54,361 bases of DNA from Zetaproteobacteria bacterium (GCA_036985955.1 BTQQ01000001.1:1-54361), one strand, 5' to 3'. Shown: positions 18,217-49,271, counted from the stretch's first letter. Translations and numbers: made by a program. The notes: generated from the sequence alone by a model not told the origin.

Positions 18217-18253
18217 CCTCACCAAAGGGGCACTGAAGCTAGAACGAACCTGA

Positions 18254-18300
18254 GGATGTGCACCCCCCCAGTATGTCGGGGTGTGCATCCTTGCGGTTTT
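18254..18300 (+). terminator. Putative intrinsic terminator after HCO subunit I
   Basis: 13-bp stem GGATGTGCACCCC / GGGGTGTGCATCC (two G.U pairs), followed by TTGCGGTTTT. Confidence 0.45.
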
Positions 18301-18307
18301 GCATAAA

Positions 18308-18321
18308 TTGATTCAGGTCAA
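18308..18321. promoter_or_regulatory. Near-consensus FNR-type box upstream of ctaB
   Basis: TTGATTCAGGTCAA matches 9 of the 10 consensus half-site positions. It lies about 75 bp upstream of the ctaB ATG. Confidence 0.4.
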
Positions 18322-18395
18322 TGCCAAATTGGCAATCAACAGGAGAATGCGCCTAGTTAGAAGCCAGCGAAGCTGGGCAGATCGTGGGGGGATCA

Positions 18396-19307: not shown

Positions 19308-19356
19308 ATCTTTACCGAGAATCTACATTCAAATGCAGGAAATCACATCGTTCCAG

Positions 19357-24148: not shown

Positions 24149-24267
24149 GGGCGAATAGTCTCATAAATAAATCTTGTGGGGAACGCCGACCTGCACGATA
24201 AACCTGCTGCATCGGGAAAGAACCAGTGCTAAGGTTCGCCGCGAAATGCCGCATCAAGGATACATCT

Positions 24268-25635
24268 ATGACAACAAAATATACATTACCACTTACTGAT
24301 ACACCACAACTCCGGCTTGCGGTCGGCTGGTTATGTGTCGCAGTGGGTTTCCTGCTGGCTTCGGGTATTTATCCACTCCTGTTGGCATTGGCACGCACCA
24401 CTTACGAAATGCCATGGAAGGATTTTTTCTATACGGCGCTGGTGCTGCATGTGGATTTTACCGTGTTGTGGTGGCTGTTGGCGATTGCCGGGGTGTTCTG
24501 GAGTCTGAATTCGACATCCCGTGCCATTTCAACGGGGTGGGCTGCTCTGATGCTGGTCGTGGCGGGGGGGATACTCGTCGGCATCTCGCCATTGACCGGG
24601 GCTGCCAATCCGCTCACCAACAATTATGTGCCAATGTTGGAAAACCATTATTTTATCAAGGGGCTGCTTGTTTTCGGTGGTGGCATTTTACTGCTGGTTT
24701 TACGCAGCCTTATGGCAACGCCCATGTCTCTTGTTTTTGCTTCAAATCATGAGGCAGCGATGCGCTTTGGTATATGGAGCGCTGCTGTCGCAACGCTGGC
24801 TGCGCTGCTGGCCCTGTTATGGAGTTTTGGCCACATGCCGGAAGGACTGGAACATCGCGCCTATTATGAGCCCCTGTTCTGGGCCGGGGGTCATATCCTT
24901 CAATTTGCGCATACGATATTACTGTGCATCTGCTGGCTGTGGTTGGCACAGGTCTGTGGCGTTGCAACGCCTGTTCATCCCCGCGTGGTGATAGCTGTAT
25001 TTGCCATTGCCATAACCTCTGTGCTGTTTGCCCTGATTCCCTTTATTCAACATAAGGTGGGGGATGCTGAATTTGCCCGCTGGTTTGTATGGTTAATGCG
25101 TGACGGAAACGGTATCGCCCCCTTTGTTATTGGTATCGCAGTCATGTGGGGGATTGTCAGTGGCGGGGTGCCGACAAAGGATCAGCGGCATCTGTATCTC
25201 GCACTGCTATTTTCAATCATTCTTTTTGCAACGGGTGGTATTCTGGGGTTGTTTATTGGTGAAAGCAGCACCCTGATTACGGCCCATTACCATGGTTCGA
25301 TTGTTTCAGTGACCATGGCTTTCATGGCCATGACCTATTACTGGCTGCCCCGTTTCAGCTTCGCCACGCCTAACCTGAAATGGGCCAGGATTCAGGTGTA
25401 TGCTTATGCCGTCGGTCAAATGCTTCACATTATCGGCCTGGCGTGGGGCGGCGGTCATGGCATGAAGCGTAAGGTCGTGGGCACGACGCAGGATATCGGC
25501 GTTCACGCCTGGCTTACACCGCAGGATTTGGTCGGACTGGGCGGCGTCATCGCTGTGTTGAGCGGAATTCTGTTCGCCATCGTGGTGTTGCCCGTGATGT
25601 TTAAAGGAAGAAGCGAGGGAAGAGCGCATGCCTGA
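24268..25635 (+). CDS. Divergent heme-copper oxidase subunit I-like protein
   Basis: About 12 TM helices. It has HCO-like landmarks: LVLHVDF (helix II His), LFWAGGHILQF (helix VI His) and AHYHGS (helix X His-x-His). FIQHK stands where the HH pair is expected, and there is no Tyr after the helix VI His. ATG at 24268 follows AAGGA. Confidence 0.75.
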   Translation: MTTKYTLPLTDTPQLRLAVGWLCVAVGFLLASGIYPLLLALARTTYEMPWKDFFYTALVLHVDFTVLWWLLAIAGVFWSLNSTSRAISTGWAALMLVVAGGILVGISPLTGAANPLTNNYVPMLENHYFIKGLLVFGGGILLLVLRSLMATPMSLVFASNHEAAMRFGIWSAAVATLAALLALLWSFGHMPEGLEHRAYYEPLFWAGGHILQFAHTILLCICWLWLAQVCGVATPVHPRVVIAVFAIAITSVLFALIPFIQHKVGDAEFARWFVWLMRDGNGIAPFVIGIAVMWGIVSGGVPTKDQRHLYLALLFSIILFATGGILGLFIGESSTLITAHYHGSIVSVTMAFMAMTYYWLPRFSFATPNLKWARIQVYAYAVGQMLHIIGLAWGGGHGMKRKVVGTTQDIGVHAWLTPQDLVGLGGVIAVLSGILFAIVVLPVMFKGRSEGRAHA

Positions 25636-26656
25636 CGAAACCCGAAAAAACAGACAGATTGCCATCTGGCTGCTGTGTGTCTGTGCCGCAATTTTTGTCA
25701 TGCTGGTGATTGGTGGCGCCACTCGCTTAACACATTCAGGTTTGTCGATGATGACCTGGGATCCGTTGATGGGCTGGATTCCACCCTTAAATCAGGCGCA
25801 GTGGCTCGATTCCTTTGAACACTACAAAAAAATTCCCGAATTTTATGAACTGAATCCCGATATGGATGTGGAAGGATATAAGAATATTTTTATGCTCGAA
25901 TATATCCACCGCGTCTGGGGCCGGTTAATCGGGCTCTTCTTTTTGCTGCCGTTTCTGTATTTCCTGATGGCCGGGAAGATAGCAAAATCATTCCGTCCCA
26001 AACTGATCATAATGTTTGTGCTGGGCGGCATGCAGGGCGTACTGGGCTGGTACATGGTCAGCAGCGGCTTTGATAATCCCCATGTTAGCCAGTATCGGTT
26101 GACAGCACATCTGTCGGCGGCTTTCATCATTTACGGATATATATTGTGGGTAGCGATGGGTCTGCTTTTCCCAGACAGGGATGCTTCCCTGTATGATGTC
26201 AGACCGCTAAGACGGCTGGCATTGGGCCTAACCGGCCTGATTGCGCTAACAGTCGTGGCTGGAGGTTTGGTGGCAGGGCTGAAGGCGGGATTCGCCTACA
26301 ACACATTCCCGTTAATGGAAGGGCACTTTATCCCGGAAGGCTATGCCATGCTTACCCCTTTTTACCTCAATTTCTTTGAAAACATTGCAGCGGTTCAGTT
26401 CGATCATCGCATTCTGGCCGAGACGCTGTTGTTGTGCGTATTCGGGTTGTGGTGGTATGCGCGAAAATTTACGCTATCGGACCGGGCGCGCATGGCATTC
26501 AATTTACTGTTGGGCATGGTTGTGCTGCAAGTATCTTTGGGTATCGCCACGCTGGTGATGGTGGTGCCCACATGGCTTGCCGTAACACATCAGGGTAGTG
26601 CCATGCTTTTGTTTACTGCCGCACTGTTTACCAATCACACACTACGCAGGAACTGA
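25628..26656 (+). CDS. ctaA: Heme A synthase (COX15/CtaA)
   Basis: GGATRLTHSGLSM, EYIHRVWGR and a HQGSAM region. The gene overlaps the preceding one by 8 nt. Confidence 0.9.
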   Translation: MPDETRKNRQIAIWLLCVCAAIFVMLVIGGATRLTHSGLSMMTWDPLMGWIPPLNQAQWLDSFEHYKKIPEFYELNPDMDVEGYKNIFMLEYIHRVWGRLIGLFFLLPFLYFLMAGKIAKSFRPKLIIMFVLGGMQGVLGWYMVSSGFDNPHVSQYRLTAHLSAAFIIYGYILWVAMGLLFPDRDASLYDVRPLRRLALGLTGLIALTVVAGGLVAGLKAGFAYNTFPLMEGHFIPEGYAMLTPFYLNFFENIAAVQFDHRILAETLLLCVFGLWWYARKFTLSDRARMAFNLLLGMVVLQVSLGIATLVMVVPTWLAVTHQGSAMLLFTAALFTNHTLRRN

Positions 26657-26660
26657 GGGT

Positions 26661-28010
26661 ATGCAAAACAGCGGATTAAGAAACATGTTGCCACTGGTTG
26701 GAATCTATGCCCTGCGTATGCTCGGCTTGTTTATGATTTTGCCTGTGTTTGCACTGTATGCCGAACATTTGCATGGCAGCACCCCCATGCTGGCCGGCTT
26801 GGCACTGGGTGCATACGGCCTGACCATGGCCTTACTGCAGATTCCATTTGGCATGCTATCGGACCGTTTCGGGCGAAAGCCGGTGATTGCCGCCGGGTTA
26901 CTGTTATTCGCGTTGGGCGGGGTGGTTGCGGCTATGTCCGATTCGGTGACTGGCGTAATTGCAGGCAGGTTGCTGCAAGGCTCAGGAGCCATTGCAGCGG
27001 CTGTGATGGCGCTGATTGCCGATCTGACTGATGAATCTCAGCGTACCAAGGCCATGGCGGTATTCGGTATAGGAATTGGCGCTTCATTTACCTTCGCCCT
27101 GATCCTTGGTCCCATGCTGGATAGCTATATCGGCGTGGATGGTTTGTTCTGGCTTGCATCTGTATTTGGTATCGTCGGTATCGTCATTCTCTATCTGTTT
27201 GTGCCAAATCCTCAACACAGTCATATGCATCGTGATGTTGAAGTAGAGCCGATGAAACTCAAGCAGATATTAGCCAACCGGCAATTGCTACGTATGGATT
27301 CCGGCATCTTTTTTCTTCACACGATGATGACATCCACGTTCATTGCTTTGCCCTTTGCCCTGCGCAATGATGTGCATTTGCCAACGGAAGCGCATGTGTG
27401 GTTCTACCTCCCCATTCTGCTGGCTTCCGTAGCCGGTATGATTCCTCTGATTATTGTGGCAGAGAAATACGGGAAGATGAAACAGATTTTCACGGGATGT
27501 GTTGTTGCCCTGATTGTGGCGGAAGGGTTACTGGCGACGACACATCATTTCATGGCCGGACTCGTGGCCGGTACGTTTATCTATTTCGTGGCTTTCAATG
27601 CGCTCGAAGCAAGCCTGCCATCGCTGGTATCACGTATGGCCCCCGCGGCAGGAAAAGGGACTGCCATGGGTGTGTATTCTACCTCCCAGTTCTTCGGTGC
27701 ATTCTGCGGAGGTGTTTCCGGTGGCGTGATGTACGGAGCATTTGGTGTTGGCGGCGTATTCATGGTTAGCGCTGGCCTGGCGCTGATCTGGCTACTGGTT
27801 TGTCGTGGCATGCGTTTTCCCATGAACCTATCAAGCAAAATGATTCCTGTCGGTAGCATCAATCAGGTGGAAGCCGAAGCACTTGCTGGAAAGCTGAAGC
27901 AGGTACGCGGTGTCGAGGATGTTACGATAGCTCAGGAAGAGGGTGTGGCCTATCTGAAGGTGGATGAAAATCAGTATAACCCGGATGTAATTCCCGAATT
28001 GCTTAAGTGA
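26661..28010 (+). CDS. MFS transporter with a soluble C-terminal extension of about 60 aa
   Basis: MFS signature GMLSDRFGRKPVI and 12 predicted TM helices. The C-terminal tail reads INQVEAEALAGKLKQVRGVEDVTIAQEEGVAYLKVD. ATG at 26661 follows GAGGG. Confidence 0.85.
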   Translation: MQNSGLRNMLPLVGIYALRMLGLFMILPVFALYAEHLHGSTPMLAGLALGAYGLTMALLQIPFGMLSDRFGRKPVIAAGLLLFALGGVVAAMSDSVTGVIAGRLLQGSGAIAAAVMALIADLTDESQRTKAMAVFGIGIGASFTFALILGPMLDSYIGVDGLFWLASVFGIVGIVILYLFVPNPQHSHMHRDVEVEPMKLKQILANRQLLRMDSGIFFLHTMMTSTFIALPFALRNDVHLPTEAHVWFYLPILLASVAGMIPLIIVAEKYGKMKQIFTGCVVALIVAEGLLATTHHFMAGLVAGTFIYFVAFNALEASLPSLVSRMAPAAGKGTAMGVYSTSQFFGAFCGGVSGGVMYGAFGVGGVFMVSAGLALIWLLVCRGMRFPMNLSSKMIPVGSINQVEAEALAGKLKQVRGVEDVTIAQEEGVAYLKVDENQYNPDVIPELLK

Positions 28011-28100
28011 TGGTGATTTTCCAAAAAAACACCATTACATGCACGGACGGACTTTTTATGATGGAATCAAATGATTAGTTTGTATGGGGATTTGTGAAAA

Positions 28101-29276
28101 ATGCAGGTTAGCGCGTTCGCACTGTTTCGGCTCGGGTTTCGACCGTTTTTTCTGACTGCGGTATTGTTCTCGGTTATAGTCATGAGTATCTGGATGCTGC
28201 AACTTGTTTTTTCTATCAAAGTTCTTCCATCCGATATTACGCCAATGTTCTGGCATGCGCATGAAATGATTTATGGCTATGCGTTGGCGGTTGTGGCGGG
28301 TTTTCTCCTCACCGCTGTCAGAAACTGGACCAGGATTCAAACCATCCATGGCCTGCCTCTGCAATTGTTGCTTCTGTTCTGGGTTCTGGCCCGAATTGCA
28401 TCGCTGATTCCCGGTCCGCATGCCCTGATTGCAGGAGTGATTATGGATAATATATTCATCGCTTCTCTGTCACTTGCCATCACGATACCGGTTGTCCGGG
28501 CAAGGTTATGGAAGAATATGAGTGTGGTGTCCAAAATTTATTTTCTTCTGATTGGGAATATTATTTATTCTCTTGGCCTTCTCGGTATGTTTTCCGGCGG
28601 GGAACGCATCGGGATTTATATTGGGCTGTATATGATTCTCTCTCTGATTCTTGTGTTGTCACGCAGGGTTATGCCGATGTTCATTGAGGGAGGAGTGGGT
28701 TATACCGTATCCCTGAAAAATCATTTATGGGTGGATATCTCAGGATTCCTTCTATTTCTCACTTTTGCGGTCTCCGATACTTTCTTTACTACCCCCGCGT
28801 TGACCGCATGGCTGGCGGCCGCATTATTTATTCTACACTGTATTCGACTTTGGGGATGGCATACACATGGTATATGGGATAAACCATTACTGTGGGTGCT
28901 GTATCTTGCTTATGCATGGATCATCCTCGGTTTTGGGCTAAAATTTGTTGCTTTCATAGCCGGTATTCCGCCCTCGCTGGCGGTTCACGCGTTTACTGTT
29001 GGAGGCATCGGCATGATGACGCTGGGCATGATGGCGCGGGTGTCTCTGGGGCATACCGGAAGAAATATCATGCAGCCGCCATCCGGGCTTGGCCCGATAT
29101 TTTTCATGTTGTTTCTCGGCGCATTCGTGCGGGTTGTTTTTCCGCTGATGTTCGCGGGTCACTACCTGTTATGGATTGGAATATCGCAAGTGTTCTGGAT
29201 CGGGGCCTTTTCATTATTCCTGTATATCTATGCACCCATCCTGATACGCCCGCGTATCGATGGACAATGGGGTTAA
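28101..29276 (+). CDS. nnrS: NnrS family heme/copper membrane protein
   Basis: FRPFFL, WHAHEMIYGYALAVVAGFLLTAVRNWT and HAFTVGGIG, typical of NnrS. Confidence 0.85.
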   Translation: MQVSAFALFRLGFRPFFLTAVLFSVIVMSIWMLQLVFSIKVLPSDITPMFWHAHEMIYGYALAVVAGFLLTAVRNWTRIQTIHGLPLQLLLLFWVLARIASLIPGPHALIAGVIMDNIFIASLSLAITIPVVRARLWKNMSVVSKIYFLLIGNIIYSLGLLGMFSGGERIGIYIGLYMILSLILVLSRRVMPMFIEGGVGYTVSLKNHLWVDISGFLLFLTFAVSDTFFTTPALTAWLAAALFILHCIRLWGWHTHGIWDKPLLWVLYLAYAWIILGFGLKFVAFIAGIPPSLAVHAFTVGGIGMMTLGMMARVSLGHTGRNIMQPPSGLGPIFFMLFLGAFVRVVFPLMFAGHYLLWIGISQVFWIGAFSLFLYIYAPILIRPRIDGQWG

Positions 29277-29410
29277 CGTTACAACCATCCGGTGAGCCGT
29301 TTACTGACTATCTGCTCCCGTTGTGGTTTCTTGCAAGAAGAGCAAGCATTACTGCGGGAGCGCACCTTGTACCTGACCGGCTTGCAACTCGTTGAAGAGC
29401 GATTTCAGCG

Positions 29411-30004
29411 CTAGGTCCAGCGCAGCCAGTGGCGAATCGTGTTTGCGATATCTTCCGGTTTACTGGTGTGGCTCATGAGTTTGTCGAGGTTGCCATCCGG
29501 GCGGACAATGATGATGAAGGAAGCATGGCTGACGGTATAGTTACCCTTCTTGTCCGGTGCTTCTTTTTTATAGCCTGATAAAAAAGATTTCGCGGCGGCC
29601 TCAATCTCTTTTGAGTTACCGCTTAGCCCCACGATATGAGGATTAAAATGCCGGGCATATTTTGCCATCACTTCAGGAGTATCACGATCCGGGTCCGTGG
29701 TGATAAATACCGGTAGAACTTTGGCCAATTCATCTGAATCCAGCAACTTGAGTGCTGCTCCGATTCTAACCAGTGTGCCAGGGCAGACGTCGGGGCAATG
29801 GGTATAACCGAAGTAAATCACGCCAACCTTGCCCAGCATATCCTTGGAAGTGACTGGGCCATCGACACTATGTAGGGAAAATTTACCATGGATATCAGGA
29901 TAATGGCTGGGAGGCATCCTGTTCATGCTGTATATACCGAAGCCAAAAAAAGCTGCGGTAAGTCCGAGAAGGATGAAAGGAAAAATGTTGCGTTTGCGGC
30001 TCAT
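29411..30004 (-). CDS. SCO family copper chaperone/thiol-disulfide protein
   Basis: Canonical FGYTHCPDVCP motif, a distal His (VSHAS) and an N-terminal TM anchor. Confidence 0.9.
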   Translation of the reverse strand: MSRKRNIFPFILLGLTAAFFGFGIYSMNRMPPSHYPDIHGKFSLHSVDGPVTSKDMLGKVGVIYFGYTHCPDVCPGTLVRIGAALKLLDSDELAKVLPVFITTDPDRDTPEVMAKYARHFNPHIVGLSGNSKEIEAAAKSFLSGYKKEAPDKKGNYTVSHASFIIIVRPDGNLDKLMSHTSKPEDIANTIRHWLRWT

Positions 30005-30127
30005 AAATAGATGGCTCCATTGATAGTGGAATGGTATTTGCGACGAAGCATATCATCGGGGATGGTTTGTTACAGGGAATGCAGCTTCGGCTAAAATAAA
30101 TGTATTATCTAATGCAGGTGAAATTCT

Positions 30128-30541
30128 CTAAAATTGTTTCAGATATTCGATAATTTCCGTTCGTTCTTTCTCAGATTTAATACCCGGTATTGCCATAAGC
30201 GTGCTGGGCTTGATTCCGGTCGGGTCTTTCAACCACTGTCCCAGAGATTTTTCATCCCATTTTTTAAAGGGGACGCCTGATATGCTGGGGGCACGGCCAA
30301 CGATGCCCTTCAGGGGAGGCCCTACTTTGCTGATATTTCTGTCCATATAATGGCACGTGCCACATTTCTCATGGGCCAGTTTAGCGCCGGGAAGTGATTC
30401 TCTTGCCAAATTTTCAAGGGTTGAACTGATAATGCCGCTTGACGGGTGTTCTTCTTTATTCTGGCCGCATGCGGCCACATTCATGACCAGTATGACAGGC
30501 AGGATTCTGATAACAAAACGGCACATGAATAACCCTCTCAT
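30128..30541 (-). CDS. c-type cytochrome lipoprotein
   Basis: Lipobox NVAAC, heme motif CGTCH and a distal Met (STLMAIPG). It resembles the cytochrome at 13554. Confidence 0.8.
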   Translation of the reverse strand: MRGLFMCRFVIRILPVILVMNVAACGQNKEEHPSSGIISSTLENLARESLPGAKLAHEKCGTCHYMDRNISKVGPPLKGIVGRAPSISGVPFKKWDEKSLGQWLKDPTGIKPSTLMAIPGIKSEKERTEIIEYLKQF

Positions 30542-30600
30542 CTCTTGATAACAATGTTCATGATGAATGGTAGCACAAAGATATCCTACATATTAGAGGT

Positions 30601-30628
30601 TTGCTTTTGGCTGTGGAGGTGCTATAAA
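30601..30628 (+). promoter_or_regulatory. Putative sigma-70 promoter of the riboswitch-led operon
   Basis: TTGCTT, a 16-nt spacer, then TATAAA. It lies about 20 nt upstream of the riboswitch P1 stem. Confidence 0.4.
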
Positions 30629-30651
30629 TCGCAGTTGAAAATTTGATCCGG

Positions 30652-30780
30652 CTTTATCAAGAGCAGTGGAGGGTTTCAGGCCCTGTGAAACTGCGGCAAC
30701 CGGCCAACGATGTTAAAGTAAAACGTCCGAGGCGTCCGGTGCCAATGCCTGCTTCCTGATTGAAAGGAAGAGCGATGAGG
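30652..30780 (+). promoter_or_regulatory. SAM-I (S-box) riboswitch aptamer
   Basis: CUUUAUCAAGAGCAGUGGAGGGUUUCAGGCCCUGUGAAACUGCGGCAACC ... GGUGCCAAUGCCUGC ... AGCGAUGAGG matches the conserved S-box blocks (UAUCAAGAG, GGAGGG, GGCCC..UGAA, GCAACC, GGUGCCAAU.CC.GC, AG.GAUGAG). P1 closes as CUUUAUC/GAUGAGG. Confidence 0.9.
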
Positions 30781-30816
30781 TGCGGTTGTCAATGTTCGTG
30801 GATTTTACGCGCATAC

Positions 30817-30848
30817 AACCTCGCTTTATTCAGGCGGGGTTTCTTTTT
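30817..30848 (+). terminator. Riboswitch expression platform: intrinsic terminator
   Basis: Stem CCUCGC / GCGGGG with loop UUUAUUCAG, followed by UUUCUUUUU. The 5' arm (ACCUC) can alternatively pair with the P1 3' strand (GAGGU), which gives an anti-terminator logic. Confidence 0.75.
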
Positions 30849-30889
30849 GCCTGTTCTTCTTGATATCTCCGGTATTGGAGCTGTTTAAA

Positions 30890-32143
30890 ATGAGCAAGAG
30901 TATTGCGCGGGCACTGAAATGCCGGGAATGCGGCCAGGAATATGACATTGCGCCGGAGCATGTGTGCGAGTTCTGTTTCGGGCCGCTGGAAGTGGCCTAT
31001 GATTACGATAAGCTGGCCGGAAAATTCACCCGTGAATTGATTGAGTCACGCCCGCAAACAATGTGGCGCTATAAGGAATTGCTGCCGGTGGACGGCGATC
31101 CGACAGTGGGCGTACAGAATGGATTCACGCCACTGGTGCGTGCCCGTAACCTGGAAAAGGCGTTGGGCGTATCCGAGTTGTATATCAAGAATGATTCCGT
31201 GTGTTATCCAACACTGTCGTTTAAGGATCGTGTGGTTTCCGTGGCGTTGTCCAAGGCGGTGGAGTTTGGCTACAAAACCGTAGCCTGTGCTTCTACGGGC
31301 AATCTGGCCGGTTCGGTGGCGGCCAACGCAGCAGCTGCCGGACTCAAGTCCTATGTGTTCATTCCGCATGATCTGGAACGGGGTAAAGTGCTGGGCGCTG
31401 CCATTTATGGAACCACGATGATTGGTATCAAAGGCAATTATGACGATGTGAACCGCCTTTGCTCCGAAATCGCCGGAAAGTACGACTGGGCCTTTGTAAA
31501 CGTAAATGTGCGGCCATTCTATGCCGAAGGATCGAAAACGCTCTGTTATGAAGTGATGGAACAACTGGGCTGGCGCGCGCCGAAACATGTGGTGGTGCCG
31601 ATGGCATCGGGCTCGCTGTGCACCAAAATTCATAAGGCCATTAAGGAATTTGTTCAGCTCGGGCTGGTGGAGGATGTCGAGACCAGAATGTATGGTGCGC
31701 AAGCTACGGGTTGTTCACCAATTTCCAAATCGGTCAAGGAGGGGACGGACCTGATTCATCCGGTACGGCCTGATACCATTGCCAAATCGCTGGCCATTGG
31801 TAATCCGGCAGATGGTTATTATGCCAATCGGGTGATACGTGAAACCGGTGGATGGTCCGAGGATGTATCTGATGATGAAATTGTGGCAGCAATGCGCCTG
31901 CTGGCCGAAACCGAGGGCATCTTCACGGAAACTGCCGGGGGCGTTACCCTTGGTGTGGCGAAGAAGCTGATTGAGCAGGGCCGTATTCCGCGTGACGAAT
32001 CAATTGTCCTGTGTGTGACGGGCAACGGCCTGAAGACGCAGGAAGCGATTGCCGGTAAGGTGGCGGAACCACGTATTATAGGTCCAAGCCTGGATGAGTT
32101 TGATGCGCTGGCTGAGGCGGATGCGGCGCAGCTGGCGGCATAA
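30890..32143 (+). CDS. Threonine synthase-like PLP enzyme with N-terminal zinc ribbon (MetM-like candidate)
   Basis: CRECGQEY...CEFCFGPLE zinc ribbon, PLP-lysine motif LSFKDRVVSVAL and a fold-type II PLP core. ATG at 30890 follows GGAG. Confidence 0.85.
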   Translation: MSKSIARALKCRECGQEYDIAPEHVCEFCFGPLEVAYDYDKLAGKFTRELIESRPQTMWRYKELLPVDGDPTVGVQNGFTPLVRARNLEKALGVSELYIKNDSVCYPTLSFKDRVVSVALSKAVEFGYKTVACASTGNLAGSVAANAAAAGLKSYVFIPHDLERGKVLGAAIYGTTMIGIKGNYDDVNRLCSEIAGKYDWAFVNVNVRPFYAEGSKTLCYEVMEQLGWRAPKHVVVPMASGSLCTKIHKAIKEFVQLGLVEDVETRMYGAQATGCSPISKSVKEGTDLIHPVRPDTIAKSLAIGNPADGYYANRVIRETGGWSEDVSDDEIVAAMRLLAETEGIFTETAGGVTLGVAKKLIEQGRIPRDESIVLCVTGNGLKTQEAIAGKVAEPRIIGPSLDEFDALAEADAAQLAA

Positions 32144-32176
32144 TGTTAAGAAACAGCGAATAACAGGAGTGATAAC

Positions 32177-32458
32177 ATGAGTGTAACCGTACGTATCCCA
32201 ACCCCGTTGCGTAAGTTGACAGGTGGCACCGATGAGGTATCGGTTGATGCGGCCAACGTGGGTGAAATGATTGAGAATCTGGAGAGCGCACATGCCGGGT
32301 TGAAGGAGCGATTATGCGATGAATCCGGCGATATTCGACGTTTCGTGAACATTTATGTGAACGACGAAGATGTACGTTTCCTTCAAGGTAAAGATACGCC
32401 GCTGGCAGACAATGATCAGGTGTCCATTGTGCCCGCCATTGCAGGCGGGAACGCCTGA
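32177..32458 (+). CDS. CysO/MoaD/ThiS-family sulfur-carrier protein
   Basis: MSVTVRIPTPLRKLTGG ... RFVNIYVNDEDVRF ... VSIVPAIAGG-NA. It closely resembles CysO-type carriers. The Gly-Gly is followed by two extra residues. Confidence 0.85.
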   Translation: MSVTVRIPTPLRKLTGGTDEVSVDAANVGEMIENLESAHAGLKERLCDESGDIRRFVNIYVNDEDVRFLQGKDTPLADNDQVSIVPAIAGGNA

Positions 32459-32474: not shown

Positions 32475-32714
32475 TTGAAACAGCGTGTTTATCTGACGTT
32501 TTCAAGAGAAACGGTACGTGAACCTCTGATCTGGAAGGTAGGGCGGGAGTTTGACGTGATTACCAATATCCGCACCGCTGAGGTGAAAGAGGACATGGGT
32601 CTCGTCGGACTGGAGCTTGAGGGTACACAGGATACCGTTGAGCAGGCTCTGGCCTGGCTTAAAGCACAGGGCGTACACGTCGAACCCATCGAGCAGAACA
32701 TTATCGAAGGCTGA
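32475..32714 (+). CDS. Stand-alone NIL-domain protein
   Basis: 79 aa, starting at a TTG after GGAG. The pattern EPLIWKVGREFDVITNIRTAEVKEDMGLVGLELEG..DTVEQALAWLKAQGVHVE is typical of the NIL (MetN C-terminal) fold. It contains no Cys. Confidence 0.7.
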   Translation: MKQRVYLTFSRETVREPLIWKVGREFDVITNIRTAEVKEDMGLVGLELEGTQDTVEQALAWLKAQGVHVEPIEQNIIEG

Positions 32715-32802
32715 GCATACATTATGGCTCGGGGTTTCCTTGTGCTATAAAGTACAGTAATATTGTTGTTGAAATAATTATTTACAGCATATGAGGTGTA
32801 TT

Positions 32803-33735
32803 ATGGTTATATTTAATAATATCGCGGAAACAGTGGGGCATACCCCCCTGGTGCGCTTGCAACGCATGGGTGGTGAGTTAAAGGCTGAAATTCTATTGAA
32901 GCTGGAATTCCGAAATCCACTGAACTCCGTTAAGGACCGTATTGGCAAGGCAATGATTGAGGCTGCCGAAGCGGATGGAAGCCTCAAACCGGGTGGCGTG
33001 ATTGTCGAACCGACCAGTGGCAATACAGGGATTGCGCTGGCATTCGTTGCGCGCGCCAAGGGGTATCGCTGTATATTGACCATGCCGGAATCCATGAGTC
33101 TGGAACGGCGCAAGTTGTTGAAATTACTGGGTGCGGAACTGCAATTAACACCGGCGGAAAAGGGCATGAAGGGTGCAATTGAAAAGGCAACTGAGATTGT
33201 CAGCAAGACCGAGGGCGCATTCATGCCACAGCAGTTTGAAAATCCGGCCAATCCGGAGATCCATCGCAAAACGACTGCGGAGGAAATCTGGGCGGATACG
33301 GATGGGAATGTCGATGCGATTATCGCGGGTGTAGGCACGGGTGGCACCATTACCGGTGTGGCCGAAGTGATTAAATCGCGTAATCCCGATTTTCAGGCTA
33401 TTGCGGTAGAGCCTGCTGATTCGCCTGTCATTTCCGGAGGCAAACCGGGACCGCACAAAATACAGGGTATTGGCGCGGGCTTTATTCCGAAGAATCTGAA
33501 CGTGGATATCGTTGATAGCGTGGAACAGGTCAGCAACGAAGATGCCTTGAGTACGGCACGTCGCTTATCGGATGAGGAAGGCATTGCCGGTGGCATTTCC
33601 TCCGGTGCGGCTATGGCCGCGGCACTGAAAGTGGCGGCAAGACCGGATATGGAAGGCAAACGTATCGTGGTCATCCTGCCATCCATGGCAGAACGCTATA
33701 TGTCCACGGATTTGTTTAAAGGAATTGAAGTTTAA
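32803..33735 (+). CDS. cysK: Cysteine synthase A (O-acetylserine sulfhydrylase)
   Basis: NSVKDR PLP lysine, [20 protein letters not shown] and C-terminal ERYMSTDLF. It is collinear with E. coli CysK. Confidence 0.92.
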
Positions 33736-33754: not shown

Positions 33755-34579
33755 GTGATTGATTTTACAGAAGAACAAATTGAGCGCTATTCGCGCCATA
33801 TTATCCTGCCAGAGGTTGGCGGTGAGGGACAGTCAAGGTTGCTTGAGTCCAAGGTGTTTATGATTGGTGCAGGTGGACTGGGCAGTCCCGTGGCCTATTA
33901 TCTGGCGGCAGCAGGCGTGGGAACCATTGGCATCGCCGATGCCGATGTGGTGGATATGTCCAATCTCCAGCGCCAGATTATTCATAACAATGAACGTATT
34001 GGCATGGAAAAGGTGGAGAGCGCGAAAAAGACCATACAAGCGCTGAATCCGGATGTGAATGTTATTACCTACACCGAGCGTGTCACCGAGGAAAATGTGC
34101 GCGAGATTATTCGTGATTACGATCTGATTGTGGACGGTTGTGATAATTTCCCGACCCGTTTTCTGGTCAACGATGCCTGTTTTTTCGAGCAGAGAACACT
34201 GGTTTCAGGCGCGATGTTCCGCTTCGAAGGGCAAGTGACGACATTCAAGCCCCATACGGACAGGGAAGGCCCGTGCTATCGCTGCCTGTATCCCGAGCCG
34301 CCTCCGGCAGGTCTGGTACCAAGCTGTTCCGAAGCCGGGATTCTGGGCGCATTGGCCGGATCTGTAGGCACAATTCAGGCTGTGGAAGTGATTAAGGAGT
34401 TATTGGGTATTGGCAATTCCCTGTCCGGCTATCTTATGACCTTTGATGCGCTACGCATGGAGTGGCGTAAACTGAAGCTTCGCAAGGATCCGGCCTGCCC
34501 GTTGTGCTCGGAAAAAGCGACCATCAAGGATTTGATTACTTATGATGAGGCGTGTGAATTGCGCGCCGCTCAAGCCTGA
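33755..34579 (+). CDS. ThiF/MoeB-family E1-like adenylyltransferase (no rhodanese domain)
   Basis: RYSRHIILPEVG, GAGGLGS and two CxxC pairs (CYRC, CPLC). The GTG start follows GGAGGG. Confidence 0.88.
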   Translation: MIDFTEEQIERYSRHIILPEVGGEGQSRLLESKVFMIGAGGLGSPVAYYLAAAGVGTIGIADADVVDMSNLQRQIIHNNERIGMEKVESAKKTIQALNPDVNVITYTERVTEENVREIIRDYDLIVDGCDNFPTRFLVNDACFFEQRTLVSGAMFRFEGQVTTFKPHTDREGPCYRCLYPEPPPAGLVPSCSEAGILGALAGSVGTIQAVEVIKELLGIGNSLSGYLMTFDALRMEWRKLKLRKDPACPLCSEKATIKDLITYDEACELRAAQA

Positions 34580-34590: not shown

Positions 34591-36924
34591 ATGGCAGCAG
34601 CTGAACCGATAAATTTCGCCAGTGAAGGCGATATTGAGGAATATGAAGCAGGATTAAAGGCATTCCTGGACGGGCGTATGCCCGAGGAACGCTTTACGCC
34701 GTTCCGGTTGCAAATGGGTGTGTATGGCCAGCGGCAGGATGGTGTGCAGATGATGCGCATAAAACTACCCGGTGGCTGTTTGACGCCCGCGCAACTGGAT
34801 GTGATTGCTGATATTGTGGACCAGTATGCTGGTGAGCTTGGCGCACCCAAGCTGGCACATGTGACAACGCGGCAGGATATTCAGGCGCATTTTCTGCGTC
34901 TGGAGGATACGCCTGCCATCCTGCGTAAGCTGGCCAAAGCTGGTATGACCACGCGCGAGGCTTGCGGCAATACTGTACGCAACGTGACATCATGTTTCCT
35001 GTCCGGTGTATGCCCCGCCGAACATGCCAATGTTAATGTGCATGCTCAGCGTTTTGCCGATTTTTATTTACGGCATCCATTGACGCAGCAATTTCCACGT
35101 AAATTCAAGGTTACCTTTTCAGGTTGTGCCACGGACTGCGGGCTTTCGGCTATGCATGACATCGGCTTTATAGCGAAAACGGAAAACGGCAACCATGGTT
35201 TTGAGGTCTGGGCGGCCGGTGGGTTGTCCACCCATCCGGTTTCGGCCATTAAACTCGAAGACTTTATCGAGGAGAAAGAACTCCTGCTGGTTGGTGAAGC
35301 GCTGATGCGCATTCATTTCAAGTATTCGGACCGCAAACATCGTGCGCGGGCGCGCATGAAATATGTATTGATGAAGCTCGGCGCTGAAGGCTTTATTGAC
35401 CTGTATCGCAAGGAACGTGCGGCTGTGGAAAAGGCGCACGGTACTGATTCGGGGTATCCCGAAGCGAACTGGCGTGAACCGTCCGGCCCGCTTCCGTTTC
35501 ATGGTGACCCAGTAGTGGATCAGCATGATAGTCGCAAGGCTGTGCTGCTCAATCTGTTCCGTGGTGATCTGACACCGGCGCAGTGCCATGCCGTAGCAGA
35601 GGCGGCACGTGTGGGTGGTAGCAATGATATTCGCGTTACGCCCGAACAGGGCGTGGTCGTTACCGGTGTTGTACCGGAAAAAACGGATGAGGTAATAGCT
35701 ATTCTGGATGCCGCCAGGATTACAACCAGGCATGCACGTGGTATTTCCGATGTGACGGCGTGCCCCGGTGTGGAATCCTGCCGGTTGGCCATTACCAATT
35801 CCTATGGACTGGCCGATACCATTAAACCGGAGCTTGAAAAGTTGACCGTGAACTATCCCGATCTTGCCGGGATACAGGTTAAAATTTCGGGGTGCCAACA
35901 CTCCTGTGGCCAACATCATATCGCCGATCTCGGGTTCCACGGCCTGGCGAAGAAGATCGAGAGCAGGGCCGTGCCACATTATCAATTGCATGTTGGCGGT
36001 TCAGGTAAGGCGGGCGAGGCTTTTGGTTATGCCACGAATCCCGTACCAGCCAAGCGTGCGCCGGAAGCGGGAATCGCCGTGCTTCGTACCTATCAGGAGG
36101 AGCGGGAAACGGATGAAAGCGTGCATGATTGGGCGGCCCGCGTTGGCAAGGATGGCATCAATGCTATTTTGGCACCATTTTCCGCCGGTGAGGGCGAGGT
36201 TGAAGGGTTGATGTATGACTGGAGCGAGAATCAGCCCTTCTCGACCAAAGATAACAAGCCGGGCGAGTGCGCCGCCGCCGTGGTTGGCATGACCGATGCG
36301 CTGGTCGCCGAGGCTCAATATGAATTGCGTGTCGGCACTGCCCATCTGGATTCCATGTTCTGGGCTGAGGCATTGGAGGGCTACAAGCAGTCCGCCATCT
36401 CTGCCGCACGAGCCTTTCTGGTCGTCTACGGTGAAAAGCCGGAGGATGATGCGCAAGTTTTTGGCCTGCTGGCTGGCCTTGCCGTGGCCGACAAGGAGGT
36501 CTCCGGCGGCTTGGCCAAGGCAACATCGGCATTAATGAACGTCAATATCGCCGATCCTGCGCCGGGTGTCACCGCCTTGCGGGATGTGGTTGAAGCATTT
36601 GTTGATCTTGCGTCCGTCCGGTTTGCACCGGTGCCTCAGGAAGAATCCAAAGCACCGGATGCACCTGCCGCGAAACAGACATCAGCCGGAGATGGAGAAC
36701 CGATTCTGCTAGACCTCACAGGTGTGGCCTGTCCGATGAATTTCGTCAAGACTAAACTGAAACTGGAAACGCTGCCGGCTGGCGCGCGTCTGTCAGTGAT
36801 TCTTGATGATGGCGAACCCATCGAGAATGTTCCGCGTTCCCTGGAAGAACAGGGGCAGAAGGTACTTGCGCAGGAGAAAATTTCTGACAGCCAGTGGAAG
36901 ATTCTGGTGGAGAAGTCTGCCTAA
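34591..36924 (+). CDS. Ferredoxin-type sulfite (nitrite) reductase fused to a helical linker domain and a C-terminal TusA/SirA domain
   Basis: Siroheme/4Fe-4S motifs are CPGVESC and GCQHSCGQH. The last 73 aa (36703-36921) read LDLTGVACPMNFVKTKLKLETL..., which is TusA-like. Confidence 0.85.
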   Translation: MAAAEPINFASEGDIEEYEAGLKAFLDGRMPEERFTPFRLQMGVYGQRQDGVQMMRIKLPGGCLTPAQLDVIADIVDQYAGELGAPKLAHVTTRQDIQAHFLRLEDTPAILRKLAKAGMTTREACGNTVRNVTSCFLSGVCPAEHANVNVHAQRFADFYLRHPLTQQFPRKFKVTFSGCATDCGLSAMHDIGFIAKTENGNHGFEVWAAGGLSTHPVSAIKLEDFIEEKELLLVGEALMRIHFKYSDRKHRARARMKYVLMKLGAEGFIDLYRKERAAVEKAHGTDSGYPEANWREPSGPLPFHGDPVVDQHDSRKAVLLNLFRGDLTPAQCHAVAEAARVGGSNDIRVTPEQGVVVTGVVPEKTDEVIAILDAARITTRHARGISDVTACPGVESCRLAITNSYGLADTIKPELEKLTVNYPDLAGIQVKISGCQHSCGQHHIADLGFHGLAKKIESRAVPHYQLHVGGSGKAGEAFGYATNPVPAKRAPEAGIAVLRTYQEERETDESVHDWAARVGKDGINAILAPFSAGEGEVEGLMYDWSENQPFSTKDNKPGECAAAVVGMTDALVAEAQYELRVGTAHLDSMFWAEALEGYKQSAISAARAFLVVYGEKPEDDAQVFGLLAGLAVADKEVSGGLAKATSALMNVNIADPAPGVTALRDVVEAFVDLASVRFAPVPQEESKAPDAPAAKQTSAGDGEPILLDLTGVACPMNFVKTKLKLETLPAGARLSVILDDGEPIENVPRSLEEQGQKVLAQEKISDSQWKILVEKSA

Positions 36925-36939: not shown

Positions 36940-38166
36940 ATGACGATTTTTGATAATTCCGGCCGTACCAAGTTGGCCCTGGTGACGCACGGCGTAACGC
37001 TTCCCGATGGTTTGCCACAGGCCTCTCACTGGATTTCCCAGGCCAATGCCGTGGAAACGGTACTGGATATGCGCCTTCCCAGTGGGCACTTTGCAACCGT
37101 TCCTGTAGCCCAGCCGTTTACGGAGAAGAGTCCGATTGCACTGCATGTTACGGAAGATGGATGTGAACTGGCACACGAAGGTGAGAGGCTGCACGTGGAA
37201 TTGCTTGCGGCGCCTAAATATTACCATCGGACGACACGCGCCGGTGCCCGTATGGGGAGCTTCTCGTCGCTGCATGATAAATTACTGATTTTGCATCCGC
37301 TGATGGGCTGTGGGTTTTTCGCCGATCAGGGGAAGGCCTGCCAGTACTGTCAGTATGATTCGATGCTGAATGAAGCGATCCCACCGTTACGCGATCCGCT
37401 GGAACTGGTGGAGGTGGTGCGGGCGGCGCTGGCCGAGCGTGAAGTGGACACGGTGTATCTGTACAATGGTCATGTGCCGGGGGATCAGGCGGGACTGGAT
37501 CGTCTGATTTCGCTAATTGCACTGTTGCGCCGTCACCTGGGGCATCGTCAAATTGCATTGGAAACCGTAGCGCCACGCGATACCTCCATGATCGACGACC
37601 TGTATGCCGCAGGGCTGGATGTGCTGATTTGCAATCTTGAATTATTCGATGAAGAACGATTTGCCACTGTCTGTCCCGGCAAACAGGCCGAAGGCGGTCA
37701 GGAAGCGATATGGCGCGCGCTTGGGCATGCTGCTTCGGTATTCCGCGAGGGAGCGGTTGTCAGCCACCTGATTTTGGGTCTGGAACCGGTGAAATCGACG
37801 ATTTCCGGCATGGAAGCCCTGGTGGAACATGGCGTGGTGCCGTTGTTGATTCCCTTTCGCCCATTGCCAGGGACGCCTTTGGAACATACGGCCCTTCCGG
37901 ATATGGATGCCGCCGAGGAAGCCTTTCTCGCATTGTATGACATTCTGGCGGCATCCGGTTTGCCGACGCATCGTTTGCGCGATATGGGGCGTGTGCTTAC
38001 GCCAATGGAAAGCAGGGTGCTGGTAGGGCGAGAGGTATCCTTGCCGGAACGCCTGACGTTGACTCCTGTGGGCAGAAAGATGGGTGGATGGTTCGATGCC
38101 TTGCGGCGTACACTCAGAGTACAATATACCGATTCAGAAACGGGACGGGGCGGGACAGGACACTAG
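36940..38166 (+). CDS. Uncharacterised radical-SAM-like protein with a C-X9-C-X2-C motif
   Basis: CGFFADQGKACQYCQY (C124, C134, C137), followed by TIM-barrel-like alternating segments (VYLYNG, ALETV, VLICNLELFDE, HLILGL, PLLIPFRP). No family could be assigned by eye. Confidence 0.55.
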   Translation: MTIFDNSGRTKLALVTHGVTLPDGLPQASHWISQANAVETVLDMRLPSGHFATVPVAQPFTEKSPIALHVTEDGCELAHEGERLHVELLAAPKYYHRTTRAGARMGSFSSLHDKLLILHPLMGCGFFADQGKACQYCQYDSMLNEAIPPLRDPLELVEVVRAALAEREVDTVYLYNGHVPGDQAGLDRLISLIALLRRHLGHRQIALETVAPRDTSMIDDLYAAGLDVLICNLELFDEERFATVCPGKQAEGGQEAIWRALGHAASVFREGAVVSHLILGLEPVKSTISGMEALVEHGVVPLLIPFRPLPGTPLEHTALPDMDAAEEAFLALYDILAASGLPTHRLRDMGRVLTPMESRVLVGREVSLPERLTLTPVGRKMGGWFDALRRTLRVQYTDSETGRGGTGH

Positions 38167-38167
38167 G

Positions 38168-39595
38168 ATGCCAGTCATTTTTGATAACCGGCCCATGCAC
38201 GTATTGCTGGCGCAGAAGGGACTGCCGTTTGCGGCACTGGCTTTCCTTGCGGTGATAGCATGGTGGGCGGTGGGACAAGAGGTGCCTGCCGGATTGAGTC
38301 ATTCTGGCTGGCGCGCCATCATTGTTTTTACCCTTTGTCTTGTTCTCTGGATATCCCAATTATTGCCATTAGCGGTTACTGCTATCCTGGGACTGGCTTT
38401 GCTGCCCTTACTGGATGTGATGCCGGCTAATGAAACCTTTGCCTTGTTCGGTAACCCTGCCGTGTTTTTTATTCTGGGCGCATTTATGCTGGCTGCGGGC
38501 GTGATCAAGTCCGGGCTCTCCGAACATCTTGCTCTGGCCTTGCTGGAACGGGTGGGATCAAGTCCCCGGCGATTACTGCTGGCAATGCTGTTGTTGCCCG
38601 CATTCATGGCTTTCTTTATGCCTGAACATGCCGTGGCAGCGGTATTTCTTCCGCTTGCATGGGAGGTTGTCCGGGCGCTTGGGCTCAAGCCGGGAGACCG
38701 GTATGCACAATCGGTGTTTCTTGCTATGGCATGGGGCGCCATCGTAGGCGGCGTTGCCACCTTGCTGGGTGGTGCACGCGGACCGCTGGCCATGGCGCTG
38801 GTACAGGAATTAGCCGGTAAATCATTTTCGTTCCTTGACTGGACCATCGCCGCAGCACCACTGGTTGCCGGTATGCTGGCCGTCGGTGCTGTATTGCTTC
38901 TTTTGGTTACGCCAGTTCATGGGATTGATGTTGGGTCCGTCCGCGAAACAATTGAGAAGAAACGGCTGGAATCCGGTTTGCTTAATTGGCAAGGGCGTAT
39001 CATGGCTCTGTTGATGGTTGTGACCATCATCGCATGGCTGTTTGCAGGGCATGCGGTCGGACTTGCCAGTATTGCTCTAATCAGCGTCGTATGCATGTTT
39101 GCACTGCGGCTGGTTTCATGGAAAGAAATTCAGGCAAACGTAAGCTGGGATGTGGTCTTGCTATACGGTGGGGCGATAGCCATCGGCAAGGCGATTGCCG
39201 TGACGGGCGCGGGCGCATGGTTGGCTTCATGGTTGTTGCCAGTGGGTGCAGCGGGTTTGGGATTATTATTTCTGATGGCGTTGGCGACTTTGCTGTTAAC
39301 CGAGGGGGTAAGCAATTCTGCCGCCGTGGCCATTATGTTGCCTGTGGCGATTCCGGCAGGGCTGGCTGCAGGCATGAATCTCGTGACTGTATCCATGGCC
39401 GTTGGAATTGTTGCGGGATTTGCCTTCATGTTACCCATGGGAACGCCGCCCAATGCCATGATTTTTGCTACAGGCTACGTGAAAACTGCCACAATGTTGC
39501 GCTATGGAGCTCTCATGTCTGTCGCGGCATTCACCCTGTTTGCATTGACGGTCTGGTTGTGGTGGCCTCTTGCAGGCATTGGAGTGATGAAGTGA
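38168..39595 (+). CDS. SLC13/DASS-family anion permease (probable sulfate transporter)
   Basis: Polytopic 475-aa protein with DASS-like repeated hairpin regions (TEGVSNSAAVAIMLP, MLPMGTPPNAMIF). The ATG lies 1 nt after the preceding stop. Confidence 0.8.
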   Translation: MPVIFDNRPMHVLLAQKGLPFAALAFLAVIAWWAVGQEVPAGLSHSGWRAIIVFTLCLVLWISQLLPLAVTAILGLALLPLLDVMPANETFALFGNPAVFFILGAFMLAAGVIKSGLSEHLALALLERVGSSPRRLLLAMLLLPAFMAFFMPEHAVAAVFLPLAWEVVRALGLKPGDRYAQSVFLAMAWGAIVGGVATLLGGARGPLAMALVQELAGKSFSFLDWTIAAAPLVAGMLAVGAVLLLLVTPVHGIDVGSVRETIEKKRLESGLLNWQGRIMALLMVVTIIAWLFAGHAVGLASIALISVVCMFALRLVSWKEIQANVSWDVVLLYGGAIAIGKAIAVTGAGAWLASWLLPVGAAGLGLLFLMALATLLLTEGVSNSAAVAIMLPVAIPAGLAAGMNLVTVSMAVGIVAGFAFMLPMGTPPNAMIFATGYVKTATMLRYGALMSVAAFTLFALTVWLWWPLAGIGVMK

Positions 39596-40314
39596 ACACA
39601 TCGGCATTGATTGAGTCCACCGTAGCACTACTGCGGCAAGCCAGAGACAAACATGGCGACCGTCTGATTTACCCCTGTGCCATGGGTTCGGAAGGAATGG
39701 TTCAGATTGATCTGATCTGCAAACAGGTCACCGGAATTCGTATTATGACGCTGGACACGGGTCGCCTGCCACAGGCTACCTATGAATTGATGCAGAAAGT
39801 GCGCGAGCATTATGGTATTGATCTGGAAATCATGTTTCCAGACCGGGATGAGGTTGAGGCCATGGTGCGCGAACGCGGAGTGAACCTGTTTTATCACTCG
39901 GTTGAAAACCGCAAACTTTGCTGTGGTATACGCAAAGTGCACCCGCTTAAACGGGCGCTTACCGGTATGGAAGCATGGATCACGGGACGACGCCGGGATC
40001 AATCGGAGAACCGTGCGGTAGTTCAACCGGTTGAGGATGATCCGGTTTTTGGCCTGATAAAGTATAATCCCATGCTTGACTGGACGGAAAGCGATATCTG
40101 GGCCTATATCCGGGAGCATGATGTGCCTTATAACCGCTTACACGATGAACATTATGTCTCGATTGGATGCGAATGTTGTACCCGTGCCATTACCGCCGGA
40201 GAAGACCCGCGCGCCGGGCGCTGGTGGTGGGAGAACGAAGACACCCTGGCTGAATGCGGGCTGCATGTCAGTTCACTGAATGCGGGTGAAGGAGAGGCGG
40301 GTGAGGGGATATAG
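39592..40314 (+). CDS. cysH: Assimilatory adenylyl-sulfate (APS) reductase, Fe-S type
   Basis: KLCCGIRK plus GCECC cysteines and the C-terminal ECGLH. The GTG start overlaps the permease stop (GTGA), after GGAG. The track ORF (38986) is an artefactual upstream extension. Confidence 0.9.
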   Translation: MNTSALIESTVALLRQARDKHGDRLIYPCAMGSEGMVQIDLICKQVTGIRIMTLDTGRLPQATYELMQKVREHYGIDLEIMFPDRDEVEAMVRERGVNLFYHSVENRKLCCGIRKVHPLKRALTGMEAWITGRRRDQSENRAVVQPVEDDPVFGLIKYNPMLDWTESDIWAYIREHDVPYNRLHDEHYVSIGCECCTRAITAGEDPRAGRWWWENEDTLAECGLHVSSLNAGEGEAGEGI

Positions 40315-42516: not shown

Positions 42517-42566
42517 TTGACAACAACGGGATCTGACCTAAAATCCTGACCGATTGGTTGGTCAGG
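42517..42566 (+). promoter_or_regulatory. Near-consensus sigma-70 promoter plus palindromic candidate TetR operator
   Basis: TTGACA (42517-42522), a 16-nt spacer, then TAAAAT (42539-42544). An inverted repeat CCTGACC/GGTCAGG (42545-42551 / 42560-42566) overlaps the leader and SD of the TetR gene. Confidence 0.5.
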
Positions 42567-42574
42567 AGAAAGCG

Positions 42575-49261: not shown

Positions 49262-49271
49262 ATCGTCAACC

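Follow-up and report, generated by a model that had tools for sequence, protein, structure and literature searches.

S-box leaders of the SAM-I class, riboswitches that sense S-adenosylmethionine (SAM), occur commonly across many groups of bacteria and sporadically in alpha- and gammaproteobacteria (PMC2258182), and terminators are found in ∼10% of the riboswitches of Pseudomonadota (PMC12452182). Here we describe a SAM-I element at positions 30651-30781 of a 54,361-nt stretch of DNA from a Zetaproteobacteria bacterium (GCA_036985955.1, BTQQ01000001.1:1-54361), the whole of which is referred to below as the window. The element precedes a string of sulfur genes beginning with those encoding a ThrC-family enzyme and a ThiS/MoaD-like sulfur carrier. 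The account proposed, to which we give a probability of approximately 0.85 on the evidence of the sequence and its relatives, is that of a SAM-I attenuator acting on a sulfur and methionine operon with first genes of the MetM/MetO type. The element resembles the SAM-I aptamers of the Bacillus subtilis S-box leaders and of Thermoanaerobacter tengcongensis metF in the four-way junction, the kink-turn (k-turn) sequence of P2, the pseudoknot and the core blocks, and the likeness extends to a P1 3' strand shared with an anti-terminator and to SAM-OFF logic on sulfur and methionine genes. It is unlike the elements of Firmicutes in its zetaproteobacterial host, a longer distal hairpin in P3, an AUCCGG extension of P1 and a proposed operon of ∼11.9 kb.

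For the genes, the closest described system is the metM-metO pair of Streptomyces albulus. MetM is reported to convert O-phosphohomoserine to homocysteine with the thiocarboxylate of MetO and to be often misannotated as ThrC (Hasebe et al. 2024, as cited in bioRxiv 10.1101/2024.10.14.618325), and the same preprint describes activation of MetO by MoeZ and maturation by Mec. According to PMC12172450, citing Hasebe et al. 2024 (Appl Environ Microbiol 90:e01247-24), metM of S. albulus sits behind a SAM riboswitch; the same article reports a Microcystis homologue 51.6% identical to MetM, a scale on which ThrC of B. subtilis is reported to be 33% identical. The window shares with this pair the order of SAM riboswitch, ThrC-homologous gene and small gene for a GG-terminated carrier, and differs in that the two genes stand within a string that continues with genes for a NIL-domain protein, CysK, an E1-like protein lacking rhodanese, a sulfite reductase-TusA fusion, a radical-SAM protein, a symporter and CysHDN. 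The platform in the window is a terminator, whereas at an actinomycete (Nonomuraea) locus the aptamer abuts the start codon.

A further likeness is to the CysO-CysM-MoeZ-Mec system of Mycobacterium tuberculosis, with an extra residue behind the terminal GG of the carrier (mostly Cys in homologues), an E1-like activator and a pyridoxal 5'-phosphate (PLP) enzyme taking sulfur from the thiocarboxylate; unlike in M. tuberculosis, the window genes checked included no Mec homologue. The product of CysO and CysM is cysteine, formed from O-phosphoserine by a CysM-type enzyme. In Wolinella succinogenes the carrier has a C-terminal tail that needs trimming, and the cluster also encodes an E1-like activator and a sulfite reductase. 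The HcyS/MetY system of Wolinella, as outlined in PMC5764234 and PMC8191291 from Krishnamoorthy & Begley 2011 and Tran et al. 2011, likewise draws the sulfur of homocysteine from a ThiS-like thiocarboxylate; its PLP enzyme is described there as an O-acetylhomoserine sulfhydrylase of the MetY type, whereas the window enzyme is of the ThrC family and, if MetM-like, would use O-phosphohomoserine. No paper pairing riboswitches with Mariprofundus was found in the literature searched; two papers name both Zetaproteobacteria and riboswitches. Against this background the element is a regular member of RF00162, and the oddity of its target is already explained in print.

The SAM-I aptamer and its conservation

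The whole window was searched with cmscan against Rfam 15, in which the gathering score of RF00162 is 44.4 bits. RF00162 (SAM-I, S-box leader) matched the plus strand at 30651-30781 with 74.6 bits (E 9.9e-16) over model positions 1-108 of 108; this was the only Rfam match over its gathering score in the window, and within clan CL00012 RF00162 ranked first at the site. The initial annotation, a model's reading of the bare sequence, had placed a SAM-I element at 30652-30780 and named RF00162 as the model with which to check it; the match agrees with that placement within one base at a score above gathering. The features of the aptamer, all on the plus strand, are as follows.

30651-30781, plus strand: SAM-I (S-box, RF00162) aptamer, from cmscan, the minimum free energy (MFE) fold and covariation in relatives
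30651-58/30774-81, plus strand: P1
30663-67/30690-94 and 30671-73/30681-83 (Rfam register), plus strand: P2, with k-turn-like GGA and UGAA bulges
30695-30705/30731-30743, plus strand: P3, with a distal hairpin longer than consensus
30747/30773 and 30752-57/30765-70, plus strand: P4
30677-80 with 30748-51, plus strand: predicted pseudoknot of CAGG in the P2 loop with CCUG in J3/4, from complementarity at the position of the pseudoknot in the family

The MFE structure of 30651-30781 folded by itself was a four-way junction of P1-P4, and the bulge sequences of P2 agreed with the RF00162 consensus. The single clear deviation from that consensus was in distal P3, with an insert of 26 nt where the model has 5. 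The length of P3 was variable among the relatives, and in one of them (L004, 2709-2901) an aptamer of 193 nt, with ∼70 nt inserted in distal P3 relative to the window, still scored 68.5 bits. The usually conserved A after GAGGG was U in the window and in all zetaproteobacterial relatives; the remaining core blocks were intact.

The nearest relatives of the first gene were all from Zetaproteobacteria (Mariprofundaceae), at protein identities of up to 98%. The initial annotation had contrasted the element with the MetJ and MetR control usual in beta- and gammaproteobacteria, a comparison that does not apply to a zetaproteobacterial genome. In 24 of the 24 zetaproteobacterial loci scanned RF00162 was found directly 5' of the orthologue with 58-75 bits, and a chance match was ruled out by this recurrence of the same element in the same place together with the E value (1e-15). 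Beyond the Zetaproteobacteria RF00162 preceded the gene cluster in 6 of 16 loci, and the flanks fetched for the other ten, which also carry the pair of ThrC-like and ThiS-like genes, gave no Rfam riboswitch match; the module is therefore likely to be under different regulation in those lineages. Several of the ten had the order cysK-moeB-thrC-like-thiS-like.

Conservation was assessed on a MAFFT alignment of 25 zetaproteobacterial leaders, with 500 shuffles and slid partners as controls. The aptamer core was invariant and the flanks were variable. Aptamer helices were 86-100% paired, compared with 36-54% of cells for slid partners, and 12 aptamer pairs located in P1, P2 and P4 had changes on both sides, a result matched by none of the 500 shuffles. 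The pseudoknot was 100% paired and included one swap of C-G to U-A. Taken together with the covariance-model score, this pattern indicates that the element is almost certainly a functional SAM-I aptamer, predicted to bind SAM.

The ThrC-family enzyme and its proposed sulfur carrier

30878-30892, plus strand: Shine-Dalgarno sequence GGAG (30878-81) and ATG start (30890) of the first gene, read from the sequence; homologue alignments begin at the same Met
30890-32143, plus strand: ThrC-family PLP enzyme with an N-terminal Cys4 zinc ribbon, proposed as a MetM-like homocysteine synthase from profiles, alignment and context
32177-32458, plus strand: ThiS/MoaD-like sulfur-carrier protein of 93 aa, proposed as MetO-like (PF02597, 62.7 bits)

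The product of the first gene matched PF00291 (PALP) with 231.8 bits and TIGR00260 (thrC) with 286 bits against a cut-off of 167, and the SFKDR motif containing the PLP lysine was kept in alignment with solved ThrC structures. The initial annotation had called the target thrC-like and noteworthy; membership of the ThrC family is borne out by these two profiles, and the claim of unusualness is overstated in view of the published location of metM behind a SAM riboswitch. The N-terminal zinc ribbon spans ∼55 residues and is missing from the four closest solved threonine synthases, which align only to residues ∼54-404. Cysteate synthase was considered and rejected, with 60.6 bits for TIGR03844 against a cut-off of 324.9.

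The carrier gene begins 33 nt 3' of the ThrC-like gene and encodes a protein with the C-terminus PAIAGG-NA. Eighty loci with the ThrC-like gene were compared, and in all 76 that reach past it a ThiS-like gene was located nearby, usually directly downstream; the linked loci include metagenome-assembled genomes (MAGs) labelled Planctomycetota, Verrucomicrobia, Polyangia, Binatia, Thermodesulfobacteriota and Omnitrophota. PAIAGG is shared by the carriers and precedes a tail of 0-4 variable residues, most commonly a single Cys; such a short tail after GG typifies carriers that a Mec-type hydrolase matures (bioRxiv 10.1101/2024.10.14.618325). The tail of the window carrier is GG-Asn-Ala (32453-32458), while most relatives end in GG-Cys, GG-Arg or GG-Lys. 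The best match in annotated collections was the locus of Nonomuraea gerenzanensis, which holds in order a SAM-I aptamer (68.7 bits) ending ∼20 nt 5' of the gene, a ThrC-like gene with zinc ribbon and a gene for a GG-terminated carrier. The ThrC-like proteins of the window and of N. gerenzanensis are 56% identical over 407 aa and the carriers 55%.

From profiles, alignment and gene context, the first gene probably encodes a MetM-like homocysteine synthase, with O-phosphohomoserine as the predicted substrate. It would convert O-phosphohomoserine to homocysteine with sulfur given by the thiocarboxylate of the ThiS-like carrier, which would be activated by the MoeB/ThiF-like E1 of the operon and supplied with sulfur by the co-encoded sulfate-reduction genes. 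The foremost alternative is that the gene encodes an ordinary threonine synthase and that the riboswitch tunes the branch point between threonine and methionine. The thrC profile well over its cut-off agrees with this alternative, although NF006050 stayed below its own (286.7 against 303). The relatives are all named 'threonine synthase' in public records and the closest solved structures are true ThrCs; however, the protein carries the extra zinc ribbon, and it is 56-72% identical to carrier-linked homologues in other phyla compared with 33-38% to annotated thrC genes. The Microcystis homologue is reported in PMC12172450 to have threonine synthase and deaminase activities in vitro, whereas the same article gives the SAM-riboswitch control of metM as published, and SAM-OFF control of threonine synthesis is without metabolic logic in bacteria. 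An ordinary threonine synthase would also leave aside the linkage to a GG-terminated ThiS-like carrier over many phyla and the E1-like and sulfur-reduction genes of the window. On this balance the alternative is unlikely, and the MetM-like assignment is preferred.

Terminator and anti-terminator

30601-30628, plus strand: putative sigma70-type promoter, -35-like TTGCTT at 30601-30606, 16-nt spacer, -10-like TATAAA at 30623-30628
30644-30650, plus strand: possible P1 extension, 5' strand UGAUCCG, pairing with 30783-30791 in a constrained fold
30774-30830, plus strand: anti-terminator hairpin, the P1 3' strand and GGUUGU with ACAACC and the terminator 5' arm
30817-30848, plus strand: intrinsic terminator, 10-bp stem 30817-26/30832-41, loop UAUUC, U-tract

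Downstream of the aptamer, AACCUCGCUU-UAUUC-AGGCGGGGUU at 30817-30841 forms a terminator stem of 10 pairs (-13.0 kcal/mol) followed by the U-tract UUUCUUUUU at 30840-30848. A scan for consensus terminators gave a call at the same 30817-30841, followed by UCUUUUU. The 6-bp GC-rich hairpin that the initial annotation had noticed ahead of a U-run is the core CCUCGC/GCGGGG of this longer stem. Its further proposal, that the 5' arm of the hairpin can pair instead with the 3' strand of P1, is reproduced by the anti-terminator, the preferred fold without ligand. In this fold GAUGAGGUG (30774-30782), comprising the P1 3' strand and one more base, pairs with CGCUUUAUU (30822-30830), and GGUUGU (30784-30789) pairs with ACAACC (30815-20), for a local energy of -23.2 kcal/mol. 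For the whole ligand-free leader the ON structure with the anti-terminator was calculated at -72.6 kcal/mol and the OFF structure with P1 and terminator at -66.7 kcal/mol; with the 5' flank included, by which P1 gains seven pairs, the values were -76.0 and -73.0 kcal/mol. In a series of 3' truncations the MFE structure contained P1 up to a transcript end of ∼30830 and the anti-terminator thereafter. As a thermodynamic prediction, this leaves a decision window of ∼50 nt, which would correspond to the classical kinetic SAM-OFF design.

The platform was conserved as well. An end-anchored recount found 9-13 nested canonical pairs and a U-tract in 25 of the 25 leaders, with compensatory exchanges in the terminator of A-U/G-C, C-G/G-C and U-A/C-G. 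The anti-terminator was paired in 81.7% of cells, with a near-invariant GGUUGU/ACAACC core. Termination of the upstream cytochrome c gene was also considered as the role of the hairpin and excluded, that gene being on the minus strand and ending at 30128.

The 5' end of the leader was likewise constrained. TTGC and the A-rich positions resembling a -10 element were invariant in 20 of 20 aligned zetaproteobacterial leaders, ∼25-50 nt 5' of the aptamer, and the TTGCTT/TATAAA pair is probably the promoter, with transcription predicted to start near 30635. A strict consensus scan of 30300-31000 called no promoter. The position of this promoter-like pair accounts for the start coordinate, 30601, given in the initial annotation. 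AUCCGG (within 30643-30650), directly 5' of P1, was invariant in the same 20 leaders, so that the segment offers no covariation for the P1 extension. When P1 is formed, the possible extension (30644-50/30783-91) would cover the start of the anti-terminator strand. The sequencing runs found to contain the sequence were all of metagenome or unknown type. Their contigs, mapped on 30300-32300, were examined as a possible record of RNA ends and set aside; they were fragmented and multi-strain, and the depth peak at 30635-30701 is due to an aptamer core conserved from strain to strain rather than to RNA ends.

These features are consistent with the following mechanism. When SAM is abundant it would bind the four-way junction and lock P1 (30651-58/30774-81), probably extended by 30644-50/30783-91, making the strand 30774-30791 unavailable; the hairpin 30817-30841 would then form and the polymerase terminate in the U-tract at ∼30846-30850. 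With little SAM present, ACAACC and the terminator 5' arm would instead be taken up by the P1 3' strand and GGUUGU, allowing readthrough. The SAM-off attenuation design that the initial annotation had proposed is supported, as a prediction, by the Rfam score, the fold energies and the conservation with covariation, and the riboswitch very probably acts by termination. The same annotation had called the element noteworthy for its host, which is overstated for SAM-I itself, documented in many groups; the minority design in Pseudomonadota is the terminator platform, which is typical of Firmicutes.

Control of a genuine aptamer mainly at translation, by occlusion of the ribosome-binding site, or by Rho-dependent termination, the modes that prevail among proteobacterial riboswitches, would make the hairpin and U-run incidental. 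The low share of terminators among riboswitches of Pseudomonadota (only ∼10%; PMC12452182) gives this reading some ground, and there are loci at which it may fit, namely two of Planctomycetota (L080 and L072) with no convincing terminator past the aptamer and that of Nonomuraea, where the aptamer ends ∼20 nt before the gene. In the zetaproteobacterial leaders, however, the terminator and U-tract are present in all 25 with compensatory changes, and the anti-terminator that overlaps P1 and the terminator arm is also kept. The Shine-Dalgarno sequence of the first gene could be masked by a weak hairpin of 4 bp, CUCC/GGAG (30868-71/30878-81), yet the sequence itself lies ∼97 nt past P1, outside both alternative helices. 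This alternative is considered improbable, and termination by the 30817-30841 hairpin remains the preferred mode of control. Least probable is loss of SAM sensing in a degenerate or re-purposed S-box, which might be constitutive or respond to another ligand, a reading for which the P3 insert and the A to U change after GAGGG could be cited but which is opposed by a score 30 bits over gathering, the otherwise intact core blocks, the kept pseudoknot and k-turn sequences, strong purifying selection over 25 lineages with widely differing sequence in the rest of the leader, and regulated genes that fit SAM logic.

Several points count against the account as a whole. The calculated gap between the ligand-free ON and OFF folds is small, 3-6 kcal/mol, from folds that ignore tertiary structure and kinetics. 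A column-wise count on the MAFFT alignment gave only 57.6% terminator pairing, a figure attributed to a register shift of one column, the end-anchored count giving 100%. Orthology of the first gene to the characterised S. albulus enzyme is argued by analogy from a proxy actinomycete locus and gene context. The E1-like protein of the window is without the rhodanese domain, unlike MoeZ. Finally, no JAMM/Mec-type protease was found among the window genes scanned, a scan that left out ∼16 open reading frames (ORFs) before 18.4 kb and the remaining genome; the enzyme needed to trim the GG-NA tail would therefore come from another part of the genome or from the unscanned first 18 kb of the window.

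The proposed operon, its surroundings and significance

The genes following the carrier gene are listed below, all on the plus strand.

32475-32714, plus strand: stand-alone NIL-domain protein of 79 aa (PF09383), TTG start, GGAG ribosome-binding site at 32465-68, with a 79-aa orthologue in Mariprofundus erugo
32791-33735, plus strand: CysK-type cysteine synthase (TIGR01139, 460 bits against a cut-off of 351)
33755-34579, plus strand: MoeB/ThiF-family E1-like adenylyltransferase, proposed carrier activator (PF00899, 280 bits; NF006444 over positions 121-384 of 387 only)
34591-36924, plus strand: NirA/sulfite-reductase-type sirohaem enzyme with a C-terminal TusA domain, from profile matches
36940-38166, plus strand: variant radical-SAM protein
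38084-39595, plus strand: Na+/sulfate symporter
∼39610-40314, plus strand: CysH-like protein
40324-41232, plus strand: CysD-like protein
41235-42509, plus strand: CysN-like protein

The gaps between the operon genes are at most 76 nt, or the genes overlap. On the plus strand to 42509, leader hairpins aside, only weak intragenic terminator-like patterns were found, with no excess over shuffles, and a strong promoter-like site is located at 42517-42544, just past the CysN-like gene. The gene order is kept at least to the sulfite reductase in zetaproteobacterial loci and to cysN in the cultured M. erugo. The extent of the operon is inferred from this arrangement; the transcription unit probably ends after the CysN-like gene at 42509, and a single transcript of ∼11.9 kb under SAM control is plausible. 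More tentative is the proposal that one SAM-I riboswitch is the master cis-regulator of an 11-gene, ∼11.9-kb transcript combining the MetM/MetO-type route with the whole assimilatory sulfate pathway of symporter, CysDN, CysH and TusA-fused sulfite reductase, such that all sulfur assimilation would be under the control of SAM. In this reading the sulfite reductase-TusA fusion might hand reduced sulfur directly to the ThiS-like carrier.

The radical-SAM and symporter ORFs are in different frames with an overlap of 83 nt in the window, while in M. erugo (L082, 16486-19125) they form one ORF of 879 aa; tblastn placed the frame switch near 38075-38148. The two ORFs may be truly separate, the frame may have shifted in assembly, or radical-SAM protein and transporter may form a genuine if odd fusion. 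In some MAG loci labelled 'Deltaproteobacteria' (L066, ∼6110-6622, and at least one other locus outside the Zetaproteobacteria) the carrier is fused via its GG to a NIL domain (…AIAGG-ADTTRKIYLTF…), suggesting that the carrier and the NIL protein cooperate.

The upstream regions 13965-20253 and 24226-30541 are rich in respiratory and copper-handling genes. These encode COX3, an SCO1-like protein, COX2, COX1, a UbiA-family protein resembling haem O synthase and a PCuAC-Sel1 protein, and also two cytochromes b561, NnrS, SCO1/SenC and a small cytochrome c; a second, divergent COX1-like ORF (24226-25635; PF00115, only 50 bits) lies beside CtaA. After the sulfur operon, 42554-52488 holds a TetR regulator and a resistance-nodulation-division (RND) efflux system with HlyD-like, AcrB-like and outer-membrane factor components, followed at 50518-52488 by a eukaryote-type Ser/Thr protein kinase.

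The agreement with the initial annotation indicates that a riboswitch and its expression platform can both be recognised correctly in a reading of sequence alone. The terminator-type SAM-I switch is conserved in the 25 zetaproteobacterial leaders examined and is a minority design among proteobacterial riboswitches. The riboswitch serves as a functional label for what public records of Zetaproteobacteria and of several other phyla call 'threonine synthase', pointing to an enzyme of the methionine pathway and most likely to the MetM/MetO type; if true, a widespread misannotation would be corrected and methionine gaps filled in metabolic models of iron-oxidising autotrophs. The MetM/MetO pathway with its riboswitch would thereby be extended to Zetaproteobacteria and several other phyla, and, should the more tentative operon-wide control also be true, sulfur assimilation in Zetaproteobacteria would be gated by SAM and not by a signal from cysteine or O-acetylserine.

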